Assembly: GCA_024679065.1 (NCBI GenBank)
Contig: JAGIQG010000040.1
Coordinates: 3,968,001-4,032,000, forward strand
Source of the DNA: Sphyrna mokarran
Lineage: Eukaryota
DNA length: 64,000 bases
Direction of reading: 5' to 3'
Shown here: in pieces, positions 3,746-54,237 of the stretch
Numbering within the stretch: position 1 is the stretch's first letter
Layout: each line of letters starts with the position of its first letter
Notes under the pieces: generated by a model
What the model saw: only the letters and a program-made list of their open reading frames with translations
What the model was told of the DNA's origin: nothing
Databases searched by the model: none
Program-made: the position numbers and the translations under genes

Positions 3746-4844
3746 ATTTGGTGCTTGTAAGGTGAGGAAAAGTGGAACTCTATCCTCTTTTTGGGAGGGA
3801 CAATGAGGTGACAGTAGCATTCTGGTGACGTTAACAATCATTGTTCTGTCAACAACAGTGAGCTGCAGATTACCAAAATACATATTGAAACCGTACAACC
3901 TGTATTATAGAACTAATTGAACAGGTGCAAAATAAATGGGGAAAATTATGAAGAATTGAATGGAGCAATTGTAGTAAAGCAGGGTGCACTTAATACCCAC
4001 GACCAGTTATTGGTCTGAGTTAGTGGGTTTGTAATCTATATTGGACAATAGATTTTATGTACATATCAAAGTGCAATAAAGGAATAAAAATAAGTAATAT
4101 TCAGTAAATGAAAATCATCAGAAGTGCAAAGATTAAATTGGAAGGAGGTAAGTTCTCGTCAGTGAGCAGGAATCGACACGGATATCGCCACCTATATATT
4201 GAGGAAAGAGGTGAATGTAGCAGCCTGTGTAGGACTGGGGCATCGAAGACTCGTTTTCCCAAAAAAATCAAAAGAGCTCGAACTGCGGCCTCTGTGCAAA
4301 GAACGAGTGAAGTTAAATATTGTGAAGAACGAGTGAAGTCATTGTGGAAGCCCGTTCCATCAGGTGACAGAGTCTGGTGAGAGATAGGTCTTCATTCAAT
4401 TAAACAAGAGCCCTCAAAAAGCCCTGGCAGCTGATGGCAGGACACGGAGATTGTGTGACTAACAACGCTGATGTGAACCTGTATACTCTGAAAGTAACTT
4501 TGTTGGACCGAATTGCAAAGAACGTACTGTCAGTGAACTTTTCCTGCTCATCCAAATTAGGAAGTCCAGAATGCTGGACAATTTCATACTTGTTCAACTG
4601 GATTTGTCTACTTTGATATTAACTGTGCTAAACTAAATCTTACTTTGAGTATCACCACATTGGGTCGGAGTTCGATGAATCAGTACTGAAAATGTGTGTG
4701 TTCACGTGTTCGATCGTTTACACAGATTTATGCATGTTGACTTGGACCAGACCCAACCGGGTTCCAACCAAAAATAAGAAAAATATCATGATACTGGAAT
4801 CTGAAACAAGACTAGAGGAAGCTGAAAGAACTCGAGTCGTTCTT

Positions 4845-5181
4845 CACGTCGTTAGTGTACGCTTGACCTGGACCATTTGATGGGCAACACGACAGCTCAG
4901 TGGCTGTCGCTGTGCTGTGCAGATACATGGATTTGGGTCTGTGTTTGCGTGGGTTTTCTCCGAGTGCTCCGGTTTCCTCCCACATTCCAAAGATGTGCTC
5001 TTAGGCTAATTGGCAAAACAAATTCTCCCTAAATTGTCTCAAATTTGGTTTTTAATCCATAGATCTATAAACATGGACAGGGATCGCGGGTAGAGGTGGG
5101 AGCATCGGGGTGGCGGTGCAGACTCGTTGGGTCGAAGGGTCTGTTTCCCGTGCTGTTTTGTTCTTTGTTCTTTCTTCTTTG
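4845..5181 (+). mobile_element. Composite SINE copy (HE1-like body, B box absent, CR1-type tail), 5'-truncated
   Basis: Aligns with copies at 19494-19985, 35811-36250 and 41031-41207; TTCTTTG tail. Confidence 0.75.
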
Positions 5182-5924
5182 TAACCAGTTTATAGTCCAA
5201 CAGATTTATTTGAAATTACAATCTTCCCAAATGCTGAAGGAGCAGCACTCCAAAAGATTGTGATTTCGGATGAACATTTTGGACTGCAATCTGGTTTCGT
5301 GTTGCCTGTTATCGTATCCATCACAGTCCAATATTGGCATCTCCATCTATGGCTAGCATCTCCACCCCATGGCCAGCATCAAGCAGGAATGATATATAGT
5401 AACGTTTTGGAGTTACTTGTCGCAAAGTGTCAAGATACAAAGGAATAACCGTGTTCCTCTCCTGAAAAATGCTGACAGATATGCTGATTTTTTTTTTCAT
5501 TTGCTCTGTCCTTGTTGCCGAATGCAAACTTTCTAGATTGAATCTGTCTATTCTGAGTGTAAGCGTATTAATCTGAACATGTACACAATAAATGCAACTA
5601 TATTGAAATGGACTAGACAGTATTTAATTTAAATGCCCTAGCAGAATCTGGCTTATGATATGCAACTGTGTTAGTCAGTATATTTCCACAAATGTATTAA
5701 AATGGTTTCGCCGCCTCAGAGATTTCCCATCAGCATTAACTTGCCTCGTGATCATATGGACTGAACACTGAACAGGAGGGAGAAATTTTCAGTGTTTTCA
5801 TTCGAATATCATGTTCATTTATAAGTGGCGCAGATATTTCACATAATTTCATTGCAGCGTTAATGTAAGCCTTATTTGTGACAAAAGAATTACATTACTT
5901 TAGTAACTCAGCGTTAATAGAATT

Positions 5925-21445: not shown

Positions 21446-21900
21446 ATGCGTATCCTCGGCATCTGGATTGTATGGGGAGCATTTCTAACAGGTATTTCTG
21501 GACATCATGTTCGTTGTCTTATTTCTAAAGCTTGGGTTGAATCTTCTGTTGAGTACACGTCCCTCTATTTGTCTATTTTAACGTATTTTTCAGATCTGAC
21601 CCATGGAGATTCTATCACTCAGCCGCTGTCCTCAGATGTTAAGACAGAAGGAGAGGCAGTGACATTAAACTGCAACTATGATACTGCAGAAACCAGCTAT
21701 AATTTGTTCTGGTATCGACAGCATCCAGACCCCCAGCTCGAGTACATTCTGAGGAAGTTTTCAGGGGGTTATGAAGATAAAGCAGATTTTGCTAAAAACC
21801 GTTTCTCGACTAACCTCCAAACCTCGAAGAAATCCATCAATTTGACGATTTTGGATCTGCAGTTGTCTGACGCGGCCATGTATTACTGCGCTTTCAGTCT
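21446..21900 (+). CDS. TCR alpha/delta V segment, intact (leader 21446-21491, V exon 21594-21900)
   Basis: Leader MRILGIWIVWGAFLT G|GT; acceptor TTTTTCAG; DSITQP...VTLNC...LFWYRQ...LSDAAMYYCAFS followed by an RSS. Confidence 0.93.
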
Positions 21901-21939
21901 CACAGTGATGCAAAGCAGTGTGACTCCTGTACAAAAACT
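21901..21939 (+). other. 23-RSS of the TCR V
   Basis: CACAGTG, 23-bp spacer, ACAAAAACT. Confidence 0.95.
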
Positions 21940-27388: not shown

Positions 27389-28548
27389 TCTATATGAGAC
27401 ACAATGACAACGATGACAACGATTCTCTGTGACAAGGTCAAAGACATTAATATAGTTGGAAATCTACAGGGAGGCAATTAATTTCCGCAATTATTTACAC
27501 TTACTTGAACAAACAGATTCAGCAGTCATTTTCCGTATTCATTCTGGAAGGGTTTAGAATGTTGCAATACTCCAGGGAGGCGATGATCTAGTCTTTCTAT
27601 TTCCTGCGGCCTGTATAATTTTGAATTTAATTACTTAATACTTAAAAAGTAAGGCATGCTTATCGCGTGAGATGTTCGTTATTATGATGCAGTTAAGGAA
27701 TATAGTAGCCACGAGGCAGCAGGCAGCATAACTCAGTGACATTAGAGCAGACGAGAATCAGAATGATAGTAAAATAAGAAATACTATTGATGCTGGAATC
27801 TGAAACGAAAACAGAAAAGGTTGGAAAATCCCAGCGTTCTGACGAAGGGTTATTCAGATTCGAAACGTTCTATTCCCTCTCCGCAGATGCTGTCAGATCT
27901 GCTGAGATCCTCCAGCATTTTCTATTTTTGTATCGAAATGACAGTGACAATCATATGCTATCGAACTCATATTACAGATGTAGGAGCCCTGCGCAGCATA
28001 TAACTTCCTCACAAAATATAAATCATTCCCACACTGCACTAATGATGCCAAAAAGCGTCACCGATCATCCACGCCATAGAACATGCATTCTCACAAACAT
28101 ATTCACACAGCACCGAAACATCATCAAACTGCCCAATGTGCATCACATGGGAGCTGTCAAAATATCAGGCAGAAGAACATATGGAAATTTTCAGACGTTT
28201 TCATACCAATCTCAGCACTCTTGATCATTCCAATTGTTTCTTGCCATGTTTATTTTTCTCTGGACTACATTTCTATTTTGTTCGCCAGATTTTCCTTGGA
28301 TATAACGTTAGGCACTGTTTCTGTTGGCTTTAAAGCTTTGGTTATTTATTTAGTAGTCGTTGTGCCATTGGTGAATTCACTGTTTAATTAGGATGTAGGA
28401 GTAAACAAGATCGCGATTTTCTCTTCCGTCGCGACACTACCTTACATAATGGCTCGCCCCCGCCCCCTCAGAAAGCATTCCTTTTGCTTCGTATGCCGAT
28501 TGATTGAAATTTGTTTTAATGGGTCCATTTATTCCCTCCACCACCAAT

Positions 28549-28797
28549 GCAGCGGTGGCCAGGGAGGAGTGGCTGTCGCTCACCATTACGTGTGATTTCT
28601 ACGCTGGTTATGATTTCGAAACTGGTCATTCTTTTTTCAGACAAATCCAGACTGGGACAAAGCGTGAGCGGATCTCCAGTGAAGGGATATTTGTAGTGTT
28701 TGTGAATAAAACAGGAAAGACATTTTCACTGGAGATTCTGGATTTGATATTACTTTAAAGCTCAGCACTGGTACAACACATATGATGCAGCATAGTG
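28549..28797 (+). pseudogene. Orphan NAR-TCR-type V pseudogene
   Basis: AAVAREEWLSLTITC...FFRQIQTGTKRERISSEGIFVVFVNKTGKTFSLEILDL is clearly paralogous to the V at 36431-36719; FR3 deletion and frameshift, YYC changed to YYF, degenerate heptamer CATAGTG at 28791. Confidence 0.8.
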
Positions 28798-30271
28798 GAA
28801 GAGAGAAGGACAATTCTTAAATGCTTCTGAACAATCAAAGCAGTAATTCCAGGACCTGGTATTTTAATCGAAGTCAAATCCCACCATCTGTCGTAGCAGG
28901 ATTTGACCGATGCACTGCAAGAACTCACTAAGCCTCCTTGGGTGGTACATTTTAAACACACAACAGCTGCAATCTAGAAGGACACATCGAAACACTACCA
29001 CTATCCAGACTTGGAAATGTACTAGCTTCCTTCACTGCCCCTCAGTAAATATTCTGGAATTTCCTCCCTAGTCTCAAGACATTTCTATATGAAAATGCTA
29101 GAAGAACAGATCGAAATATTTGGATATATTTACACAGAGTCACGAGAGAATGCGAAAGTCTCTTTTTTTCTGAAACAGCGCAATGAATTTATGGCGCAAC
29201 TTGAAAAAGATGAGCGGGAAAGAGAAATAAATAGTGATATGGCTTAGGATGTAAATGGTTATTTCGTGTTCGAGAAGAGAAGAGCTGTACAAAACAAACT
29301 TCGACCAACTGAGCGGAATGGCCTATTCGTGTTGAGTGGCAAGGGTACAATGTAAACTTCAGAAACTGTTCTGTTCGGAAAGCATTGGAAACAATTAACC
29401 AATGGGCTGAAGGAAGTAATTCTCAGGCACCCTGAAGAGGCAGTTCCCACTGAGTAATAGTAAAACCACTGCGGAAACTGAAGAGACTGAACCCAACCGA
29501 CAACTGAGAGTCCTCAGATACGTTATCATGACGGTTAGAAACCGCAAAGAACAGACAGAAAACAACTCAGATGTAGAAATAAAACGAATTCAACTCTTTT
29601 TCTATTAAAAGTAAAATGACAGGATTAATGGAGCCCAACGGCAGGGAAGAGTTCATGAGGGTCGAATCTCGACAAATGTTGACATTTGACCCACACTATC
29701 CATTGCCAGTTGGGCTTAAAGAGTGCAGACGAATATCTGTAATTTGTGTTGAATTTTGATACGTGCAGGGACATAAAACTAATGATTATCCTTCAGTCAA
29801 TGAAGACTGGATAGTAATTAATCGGACAAGAATTGACATTAATGTTTTTTTGGGGGGAGTTCTTATTTCATCAACACATTTAGAAGCTAATATTGAATAA
29901 AAAGCAGAATCATGCAGCACAGAAGAGCATATTTCTGAAATAATGACAATTGAAGGCGCTGCCAGTTTTACGCATTCACCTTGCTATATTTCTCTTGGGA
30001 CTGTATTCATGCTTTGTTCCAAAATTTTCTTTACCTCACTATACTTTTGAAAGTTAAAGCCGCATTTCCCAGCACCACTCCTTCTGTTCCCAGCATCACC
30101 CTTTCTGCAGTTGAGTAAAATTTGCTGTGGATAGAAAAATAGCCCACAGATTTCTTATGCTTATTTACTTCCGTTGGTCAACAAATTTTGAACAAACTTC
30201 GTCATTTTCAGGTTTCTGCATTGCTGTCTCTGAGCTCTGTATCACTATGCCTGTAATACTCCCGAAGTTTA

Positions 30272-30310
30272 GGTTTTTATACAGCTCCTTCCGCATTCTG
30301 TATCACTGTG
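30272..30310 (-). other. 23-RSS of the supporting TCR-delta V
   Basis: Minus strand CACAGTG, 23-bp spacer, ATAAAAACC. Confidence 0.93.
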
Positions 30311-30616
30311 CTGTGCGCCGACTCAGTGCACAGTAATACACAGCCGAGTCACTTAGCTGCAGTTTGGAGATCGTTAACCGGCTGATCTTCTCGACAGAAT
30401 CGTCAGAAGCAGAAATTCTCCCCACGATAGCGTTTTCTTTATTCTCCCCTCCTGAAGTGTGTGTCTGAAGCAGGTATTTTAGAGCCTGCCCTGCGAAGTG
30501 ACTGTACCAATGTACTGTGTACTGACAGAACCCTGAATATTCACAGCTTAAAGTAACCGTGTCACCGACAACTGAGTTTTGGAGAGGTGGATTCTTGAAA
30601 TCCAGGGAACTGGAAT
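30311..30616 (-). CDS. Leaderless supporting TCR-delta V exon of a NAR-TCR cassette
   Basis: Acceptor TTTTCTCTTGCAG|AT; DSSSLDFKNPP...VTLSCEYSGFCQYTVHWY...LSDSAVYYCALS; extra Cys in CDR1; no leader exon seen upstream; phase-1 splice compatible with the J at 35582. Confidence 0.9.
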
Positions 30617-35285: not shown

Positions 35286-35581
35286 GGGGATGCATTATTA
35301 GGATCAGCGATGTCCCCATTCAAACGATGATGGTCCCGATGGGTTGAAAACTTCGTCGACTAATAGTCTGTTTGTTACTCAGAATTGTGAAAAAAGTTAA
35401 ATGAGCCTTTCTACCTTGGTCCATATCATTATCCCAAATATAAAAATGAGATTGAAAATTGTTTCTTATAAAATGGTTCGGTTTTCATTTCAATGCGATT
35501 GAAATAATAGTGCAAGTTAATAAAAGGATAGTGAACATTAACTGGGACTACCTGTAACACCATACATTTGGAGTCACTTAC

Positions 35582-35641
35582 CGTCTGTGACAGTCACCAC
35601 CGTCCCGGATCCCTCTGCAGTGCCATATCTTGACTTATGAA
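35582..35641 (-). CDS. NAR-TCR-type J segment
   Basis: Minus strand HKSRYGTAEGSGTVVTVTD then G|GTAAGT donor (35576-35581); preceded by a 12-RSS; IgNAR-like xGxGTVVTV motif. Confidence 0.9.
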
Positions 35642-35669
35642 CACAGTGTTTCAAGGCAATACAAAAACA
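35642..35669 (-). other. 12-RSS of the J segment
   Basis: Reads CACAGTG-TTTCAAGGCAAT-ACAAAAACA on the + strand, facing the J. Confidence 0.93.
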
Positions 35670-35810
35670 CCCGGTTACTTGCAAATGTTAAGTGGTACAC
35701 AATGCGGCTCCCGATCCATGTGTGGGAGCAGAACTTCCTCTAGTGTGACAGTTTGTAACTTGGATCAGCGATTCCCAATCTCCATTCACTGACACCAGTG
35801 CAGAAAAAAT

Positions 35811-36250
35811 ACAAAGAACAAACAACAAAACAGCACGGGAAACAGGCCCTACAGCCGAACGAGCCCGCGCCGCCACCCCGTTGTTCCCACCTCTACCCGC
35901 GATCCCTGTCCATGTTTATAGATCTATGGATTAAAAACCAAATTTGAGACAATTTAGGGAGAATTTGTTTTGCCAATTAGCCTAAGAGCACATCTTTGGG
36001 ATGTGGGAGGAAACCGGAGCACCCGGAGAAAATCCATGCAAGCACGCAAACTCCCACAGACACTGGCCCAAATCCATGTATCTGCACAGCACAGCGATAG
36101 TCACTGAGCTGTCGTGTTGCCCATCAAATGGTCCAGGTTAAGCGCACACTAACGACGTGAAGCACGAGGATACTCTCCAAAAAGATCCAAGAGCAGTCCT
36201 CTCACGACCCATCGCGTGTATGCCCCTCGTTAGACAACAAGGTGGACCAA
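35811..36250 (-). mobile_element. Composite SINE inserted between the NAR-type V and J
   Basis: Reverse-complement match to 19540-19985 and 4845-5181. Confidence 0.85.
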
Positions 36251-36391
36251 CATAAAGTTTGCATTTATCAAGTTCAAGATATTAACGGCAATAATCCAGT
36301 CTGATATAAACAGTATTATGTGAAACTAAGCTGTGGGTTTCAATAGAAATCAATTCCGATACTTATTTGTTTCTGCGAAAATTTGCATGGT

Positions 36392-36430
36392 GAGTTTTGG
36401 TATCGAGGGAAGCCGAGGCCCTTCACTGTG
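36392..36430 (-). other. 23-RSS of the NAR-type V
   Basis: Minus strand CACAGTG, 23-bp spacer, CCAAAACTC (variant nonamer). Confidence 0.85.
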
Positions 36431-36882
36431 TAAATGTCCCAGTACTGAAACTTACAGTAATAGGTGGCCGTATCTTTAACATTCAAATCCCGAATTTCCA
36501 GCGAAAATGTCTTTTGTGCTTTATTGAGCGACATAACAAATCTCCCTCCGGCTGAGATCCACTCCCGCTCTGTCCCGGTCTTTGTTTGTTTGAAAAATTC
36601 TCCCTTTCCTTGAGGGCTAGATAAATAACCTCCATATAAAGTACAGGAGATGGTGAGAGACTGGCACTCTTTCCTGGTCACCGCTGCCGGGCTCTGTCTC
36701 ACTGACTGACTCAAGGATCCTGGAAATTAAACACAGAGAGTTTATTGGACCATCAGAGCGGAACAATACCACGGAGCTAAAACCCGAGACAGTGTCTGCA
36801 ATCCCGACAATGAGAGTTAGTTTGATCGGTACTCACGAGGTAAGTAGATACACAGCGTGAAAACAAAGAGGATTTCCATCAT
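36431..36882 (-). CDS. NAR-TCR V (IgNAR-like V domain), intact: leader 36837-36882, V exon 36431-36719
   Basis: Leader MMEILFVFTLCIYLP C|GTGAGT; acceptor TTTCCAG; QSVRQSPAAVTRKECQSLTISC...FFKQTKTGTEREWISAGGRFV...KTFSLEIRDLNVKDTATYYCK; short FR2-CDR2 as in vNAR; extra FR1 Cys. Confidence 0.9.
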
Positions 36883-53665: not shown

Positions 53666-54237
53666 GGGTTTTGTATAGGGTTTACTGTATCTATGCACCA
53701 GTGTGTGCTCCATGGCACAGAAATACATGACGCTGTTAGATAGAAGAGCCCTGGCGATATTTAAATGAACAGTGTTATTCCCTTTATGTAAAGCAGCCGA
53801 GAATCTATTTGGGAAATCTGGAGAATATCGGTGTTGTCTGGTATCTTCATCAAATATCTCGGAGCTTGCCCGGGATACTGGATGTACCACAACAGGGTTC
53901 GAAGAGAAGGTGCTGAGTATTTACAGACCAGTGTTATGTCCTGTTCTTCCAGAAACGATAATTCAGATCGATTTTGAAACTCTGAATCTTCAGCTTTTGT
54001 CCCTGTAACAAAACACAGAAGTTATTCAATGTCTGGGAGTGAACATAGCCCATGGGACAGACACTGATGATTTAAACATTGGCTCAAAGTCAGTGCTGGA
54101 AATTTTCAGCAAATCTGACAATATGTGCGAGAGGAGAACAGAGATAACGTTTCGACTCAGGATGATACTTTGTCAGAGCTTATTGACTCACCGGGCTGCA
54201 AGACTATTATTACCAGCAACCAAAATAAGGAGCGCAT
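53666..54237 (-). pseudogene. TCR alpha/delta V pseudogene (leader 54192-54237, V exon about 53706-54002, degenerate RSS 53666-53705)
   Basis: Leader MRSLFWLLVIIVLQP G|GTGAGT; ITLVCKYS...LLWYIQYPGQAPRYLM, then a frameshift to YSPDFPNRFSA...VMYFCAME; nonamer ACAAAACCC with a non-consensus heptamer and spacer. Confidence 0.85.

Follow-up and report, generated by a model that had tools for sequence, protein, structure and literature searches.

A NAR-TCR cassette without a separate D segment in Sphyrna mokarran and its probable origin through germline loss of D

The cassette and its surroundings

The window, i.e., the whole stretch of 64,000 nt of S. mokarran DNA analysed here (contig JAGIQG010000040.1, positions 3,968,001 to 4,032,000), carries on its minus strand a cassette composed of a leader, a V exon, a V RSS, an interval of ~720 nt, a 12-RSS and a J-like segment (Table 1). 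No frame, splice site or heptamer is disrupted, and both RSSs, the GT donor of the J and the supporting V are likewise intact. The Cys codon of the V occupies positions 36456-36454; the 23 nt after it (KFQYWDI) and the 29 nt before the GSG motif of the J agree with the initial annotation. The V RSS (heptamer at 36430, nonamer 36401-36393) was previously called a 23-spacer signal. This has to be corrected to 22, since the nonamer has 2 mismatches at a 22-nt spacer vs 3 in the 23-nt reading and since the spacer is 22 nt in all 14 split paralogues described below. Position 3 of this nonamer is C in the focal copy and A in the paralogues. The 12-RSS before the J (heptamer 35642-35648, nonamer 35661-35669, 1 mismatch) was found as described, and it is compatible with the V RSS.

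Table 1. Features of the focal cassette, its neighbours in the window and related loci. Positions without a contig name are those of the window.
Feature	Position	Strand	Remarks
Leader exon of NAR-TCR V	36837..36879	-	MEILFVFTLCIYLP; GT donor intact
NAR-TCR V exon	36431..36719	-	Open frame; ends KFQYWDI (normal unjoined length)
V RSS	36393..36430	-	Perfect heptamer, 22-nt spacer, nonamer with 2 mismatches
V-D intron (ancestral), first part	36251..36392	-	Aligned to paralogue introns
SINE-like repeat in mid V-D intron	35811..36250	.	Copy search; site from alignment
V-D intron (ancestral), second part	35670..35810	-	Aligned to paralogue introns
12-RSS, former D 5' RSS, now that of the J	35642..35669	+	From spacer comparison
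Germline (D)J segment	35582..35641	-	HKSRYGTAEGSGTVVTVTD; 29 nt before GSG, donor intact; best fit is 0-3 nt of D plus a full-length 27-nt-type J
Supporting TCR-delta-type V exon	30311..30616	-	CDR1 Cys (SGFCQY), open frame, acceptor in phase with J donor
23-RSS of supporting V	30272..30310	-	1 mismatch
Broken NAR-TCR V of the V-D-joined class	28546..28820 (bounds approximate)	+	Degenerate 12-spacer D-3'-type RSS after its end
V-D-joined class	L036, L038, L039, L055, L056; window 28546-28820		37-nt V end, D-3'-type 12-RSS, 23-RSS J
Cluster with split NAR V-D-J and one leaderless joined exon	C994:10,976,539-10,989,011	-	L032, L041, L084-L085
Cluster with split NAR V-D-J and four leaderless joined exons	C1271:37,084-55,882	+	L045, L042, L053, L050, L054, L092-L093, L111

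The earlier claim that no D unit lies between the two RSSs was confirmed. When each CAC in 35642-36430, on either strand, was scored under relaxed criteria, every internal RSS candidate had at least 5 mismatches apart from one with 4, which is the V heptamer read backwards; no hidden or degenerate D was found inside the interval. The interval holds the SINE-like repeat of ~440 nt that had been reported, without which ~142 and 141 nt remain; it has at least 40 other matches, 39 of those listed showing 92-95% identity over ~440 nt. A second copy of this SINE family lies at ~4800-5200 (+) of the window. Because the 22-RSS and the 12-RSS are compatible and nothing lies between them, direct V-to-J joining with one junction is likely the working mode of the cassette.

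NAR-TCR is the doubly rearranging TCR-delta of cartilaginous fish, both V domains of which are made by separate V(D)J rearrangements (according to parts of PMC1845163, PMC5931798 and PMC12227049). Its features include a NAR V with a leader, a Cys in the a-b loop and no canonical Trp, and a delta V with a CDR1 Cys (part of PMC1845163). Further traits of NAR-TCR are a delta V devoid of a leader, rearrangement of this V to a TCR-delta J and C, and a chain of three domains; in the focal cassette the delta-type V has an in-phase acceptor and an intact 23-RSS. The focal V resembles it in having its own leader and an extra a-b loop Cys (RKECQ), in lacking the canonical Trp of WYRK (FFKQ) and in being followed, 5 kb downstream, by the delta-type V with its CDR1 Cys; WFRK is kept in both IgNAR V matches. 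It differs in that the first domain has no separate D, which 14 sister loci possess, and in that the J carries the 12-RSS of a D. Among the homologues, 34 longer ones are shark gene models, most of them with a NAR V-J plus a supporting V and some with a TCR constant region; the focal copy is 60-73% identical to the two-V models of other sharks. No exact match to the focal J was present in any model among the 39 proteins from the protein searches.

Over the 30 kb that the window still extends beyond the supporting V, neither a J nor a C was found on the strand of this V. The nearest J-C found comprises five J motifs and a C at C994:3,852,108-3,869,005, 137-146 kb away, with the 89 kb between it and the window read only in small part; the C is identified as alpha/delta-like only. 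As this J-C is on the opposite strand, use of the supporting V would need an inversion. One TCR alpha/delta-type C exon gave 13 matches of 74-82% identity, on C994 (9), C47, C180 and C1271. At 21570-21939 (+) the window also contains a TCR alpha/delta-type V exon of the conventional kind, orientated opposite to the cassette, whose 23-RSS is intact; at ~53700-54030 (-), a V-like remnant with a frameshift is followed by an RSS-like site (24 spacer). At C994:6.87 and 6.96 Mb, L057 and L060 form IgNAR V clusters, and multiple D-like units accompany them on that contig.

Split, fused and joined sister loci

When the shark's own genome was searched at the protein level, 46 matches were obtained, with 150 candidates scored out of 240. 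The best 30 are treated here as loci; some of those on small contigs may duplicate assembled copies. Among these best 30, 14 are split cassettes (V-22 … 12-D-12 … 23-J), with a 23-RSS J in 13 and no J in one. In six, which form the V-D-joined class, a 12-RSS comes after a long V end, and two of these six are broken, the pseudogene at 28549 among them; seven are fully joined NAR loci and two are IgNAR. The layout V-22 … 12-J occurs in the focal copy only. In the V tree, which has 20 rows with near-duplicates and broken copies omitted and does not fix the direction of change, the focal V is a separate lineage with 76-82% identity to the other V copies, and its branching is left open.

Measured from the Cys codon, the V end is 26 nt in the focal copy, 19-27 nt in split cassettes and 37 nt in fused copies. 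The initial annotation proposed that the focal V might be joined with its D in the germline, and such a fusion could be suspected, as the V does run past its Cys codon and fused copies do exist in the family. However, the fused copies have 34 nt past the Cys, a 12-RSS, a D-J intron and a 23-RSS J, whereas the focal copy has an end of normal length, a 22-RSS and a V-D intron, which leaves a fused V-D in the focal copy with hardly any credibility; the description fits the other copies instead. Three of the four fused copies tested align to the D-J intron (z 3.6-9.6); L039 does not align. The pseudogene at 28549, from which the long V end had been taken as a trait of the whole family, belongs to the V-D-joined class and has an end of the 37-nt type; no J was seen in the ~900 nt after it. 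The proteins P0001 and P0026 (Mustelus) have the same YYxHGTP end as this class.

An intact leader is absent in the 400 nt upstream of all seven fully joined NAR exons and present in 17 of the 18 others tested, the leader of the remaining one (L055) being frameshifted. In the two clusters scanned, a single leader stands before the split cassette, which is followed by joined exons, supporting V, J and C. With the leaderless joined exons included, this arrangement predicts TCR chains with between four and seven Ig domains. V and C matches likewise occur on C47 and C180. Scans of three clusters placed the supporting V 300-450 nt upstream of one J only and detected no D. The CDR3s of the joined exons carry an extra Cys, which would pair, as we infer, with the a-b loop Cys of the previous domain. 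Similar CDR3s are present in P0006, P0017, P0018 and P0030 (Carcharodon and Cetorhinus, i.e., white and basking shark), Cys-bearing in these lamniforms, and the automatic gene model P0007 (Heterodontus) has a CDR3 resembling the joined class; tandem NAR domains occur in P0006 and P0007, both automatic gene models. Such automatic models suggest that the joined exons may be old and conserved, and the joined-exon clusters could possibly be more interesting than the D-less cassette itself. Among the supporting V exons L033-L035, L051 and L052 (C994:10,439,581; 12,120,294; 12,216,701; 12,318,351), four end in a poor RSS. Clusters of this kind may not rearrange their second domain, because the heptamer and nonamer are far from the consensus.

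The interval, the 12-RSS and their counterparts in other sharks

A DNA search with the whole interval was dominated by SINE matches. The SINE was removed and both flanks were compared against the V-D intervals of 13 split cassettes (out of 14) and against 16 D-J intervals, with z calculated against shuffles. The V-side flank (36251-36392) matched V-D introns in 13 of 13 cases at z 6.1-9.2, with D-J introns (n=16) at z ≤2.7, and the J-side flank (35642-35810) matched them, again 13 of 13, at z 15.3-22.3, with D-J introns (n=16) at z ≤2.5; the last 59 nt alone have a weak preference for V-D (z 2.6-4.9 vs up to 2.9 for D-J). In the multiple alignment the focal interval is collinear with the V-D introns up to the D heptamer. 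These comparisons show the focal interval to be an ancestral V-D intron and not a D-J intron. The same alignment places the SINE in mid-intron, ~140 nt before the D position; the idea that a D stood at the insertion site was not upheld, and destruction of the D by the SINE is ruled out.

The 12-RSS before the focal J needs explaining, because the J segments of the NAR-TCR family carry 23-RSSs. Its spacer is identical to the paralogue D 5' spacer at 8 of 12 positions (p 0.009), and that of the orthologues at 10 of 12 (p 0.0006). Shortening of a J spacer from 23 to 12 is unsupported: deletion of any 11-nt block of the J spacer gives a 7/12 match (p about 0.2), and the spacer resembles the D 5' spacer instead. 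The comparison thus shows the focal 12-RSS to be the former D 5' RSS. A NAR cassette of native VJ type, ancestral and at no time equipped with a D, or a J with a spacer reduced from 23 to 12, would be in line with the lack of a recognisable D core, the compatible 22/12 RSSs and the separate lineage of the focal V (76-82%), whose position the tree does not settle. However, the interval is V-D intron throughout and unrelated to the D-J intron, and the spacer is like that of a D, unlike a shortened J spacer, which makes such an origin very improbable. Of the earlier proposal of a VJ-only cassette, the direct joining of V to J therefore stands as likely; the idea of a native VJ design falls, given the 23-RSSs of the J family and the D 5' origin of the 12-RSS.

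Contigs from other sources were placed against 35450-35812 only; the sequencing runs listed include none of RNA. X3 from one study and X4 and X7 from another, one contig each, are ~92% identical across the RSS and J and have no D; the identity of ~92% makes it likely that they come from other species. X1 is identical to the focal segment, may be source DNA and was left out of the count. The orthologues have a 13-nt insertion that fills the single gap of the focal interval relative to the V-D intron, and in 3/3 the J has kept its frame, heptamer and donor. The contigs X3, X4 and X7 extend 305 nt past the aligned stretch and X1 ends after 27, which hints that the orthologues may be without the SINE. 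The presence of the same segment in X3, X4 and X7, from two studies, rules out a somatic event or an assembly artefact. The D-less (D)J segment is, as judged from these contigs, inherited and common to other sharks. Changes relative to X3 number 4/60 in the coding part and 14/171 in the intron, and since coding changes are no rarer than intron changes, selection is not shown. The segment could thus be real and old and the cassette nevertheless an unused relic without a reachable J-C. Such a fate is compatible with the explanation favoured below, and the missing J-C nearby on the same strand, the weakened V nonamer and the coding part without excess conservation are in its favour. We regard it as rather unlikely, as frames, splice sites and heptamers of the cassette are intact and those of the J, with its donor, are so in every orthologue.

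Probable loss of D in the germline and its meaning

In split paralogues, 395 nt separate the start of the D from the start of the J, and all 395 are missing in the focal copy. As the interval is V-D intron and the 12-RSS the D 5' RSS, it is the D, the D-J intron and the RSS of the J that were lost. The probable explanation is that a V-D-J cassette lost its D through the 23-RSS of the J in the germline, most likely by the action of RAG in a germ cell, so that the V would now join a J bearing the 12-RSS of the D. The ancestor would have been an ordinary NAR-TCR cassette (V-22 … 12-D-12 … 23-J), and removal of the 395 bp with the D, the D-J intron and the J's own 23-RSS would have left V-22 … 12-(D)J, in which hardly any D, or none, remains. 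RAG is favoured as the agent because both breakpoints lie inside short coding ends and because the sister copies show two other joined states; the V-D-joined and the fully joined loci testify to repeated germline joining in the NAR-TCR family. The focal copy is a D-less variant of NAR-TCR, and we infer that it is the derived state.

The junction itself may have been formed by three routes, i.e., a hybrid joint, a D-J coding joint whose D was trimmed back or has diverged, or a deletion from one heptamer to the other in which RAG took no part. The 29 nt before GSG are best fitted by 2 bases plus a full-length 27-nt J, which matches at 13-14 of 27 positions in the focal copy and at up to 17 of 27 in X4. 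Of the first 2 bases, 1-2 agree with D; the more D is assumed, the worse the fit becomes. A textbook D-J coding joint is not demonstrated, because the junction has no clear D core. The two extra bases could stem from P addition, from slippage at a later time or from a D remnant of 2 nt. If RAG was the agent, it could have made either a D-to-J coding joint leaving little recognisable D or a hybrid joint between the 12 signal end of the D and the coding end of the J with two palindromic bases; neither route is preferred from the sequences at hand. Germline hybrid joints are rare. The same structure could arise without RAG, by microhomology repair or slippage between the identical heptamers of D and J with the D wholly removed, because D and J of the split paralogues have the heptamer and the next two bases in common; the full-length J fitted by 27 of the 29 nt (up to 17/27 identical, X4) also accords with it. 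However, a clean loss from heptamer to heptamer predicts 27 nt and not 29, and RAG accounts better for a family with three separate joined states; we consider the deletion without RAG unlikely.

With germline loss of the D as the preferred reading, the somatic step would be a single V-to-J deletion, in which the SINE would be removed along with the intron. An untrimmed V-J joint would need two added bases for frame and would place 18 residues between Cys and GSG, and the CDR3 would contain one junction, with at most 23 germline bases on one side and 29 on the other. Splicing would follow the order leader - NAR VJ - supporting V, and the supporting V would reach a J-C elsewhere, perhaps by inversion.

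Germline joining of receptor segments is documented in sharks for IgH clusters with joined D-J and for one germline hybrid joint, in horned shark (part of PMC2193153), and partially joined clusters of shark and skate include V DD-J, V D1-D2J and VDJ (parts of PMC2193153 and PMC4279169). The focal cassette is like these clusters in that joined and unjoined copies coexist, the inner RSSs and the intervening DNA are gone, the outer RSS is kept and the state is inherited. The difference is that those are immunoglobulin clusters in which a free or visible D is kept, whereas the focal cassette is a TCR, its only D is gone and it is effectively VJ. TCR-mu of marsupials and platypus has an extra antibody-like V and either a germline-joined V-mu-j exon or a D-less supporting V (PMC7615758, PMC3457774). 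It shares with NAR-TCR the extra antibody-like V and a joined or D-less part, and its cluster layout resembles that of the sister NAR-TCR clusters. However, in TCR-mu it is the supporting V that is joined or D-less, whereas the focal copy lacks the D at the N-terminal V, which is thought to bind antigen; the two lineages are considered convergent. We found no paper titled for joined or D-less NAR-TCR segments, and an earlier mention in the primary NAR-TCR papers is possible. It may be proposed, as a tentative and on the whole somewhat doubtful reading, that NAR-TCR is the second TCR lineage after TCR-mu to be rebuilt by germline RAG, with the focal copy an expressed one-junction VJ made by a hybrid joint and fixed across species, and with its sisters, in which one to four leaderless joined exons are stacked ahead of the supporting V, encoding four to seven domains.

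The split, V-D, (D)J and fully joined states are all represented in one TCR family, whose copies can be aligned with each other, and the focal copy illustrates how a D-bearing unit can turn D-less and how a J can exchange its 23-RSS for a 12-RSS. Such a step has been proposed for the evolution of receptor loci and is rarely seen with the source intact. For the sharks concerned, it would predict a subset of T cells with a narrower CDR3, formed by one variable joint instead of two.
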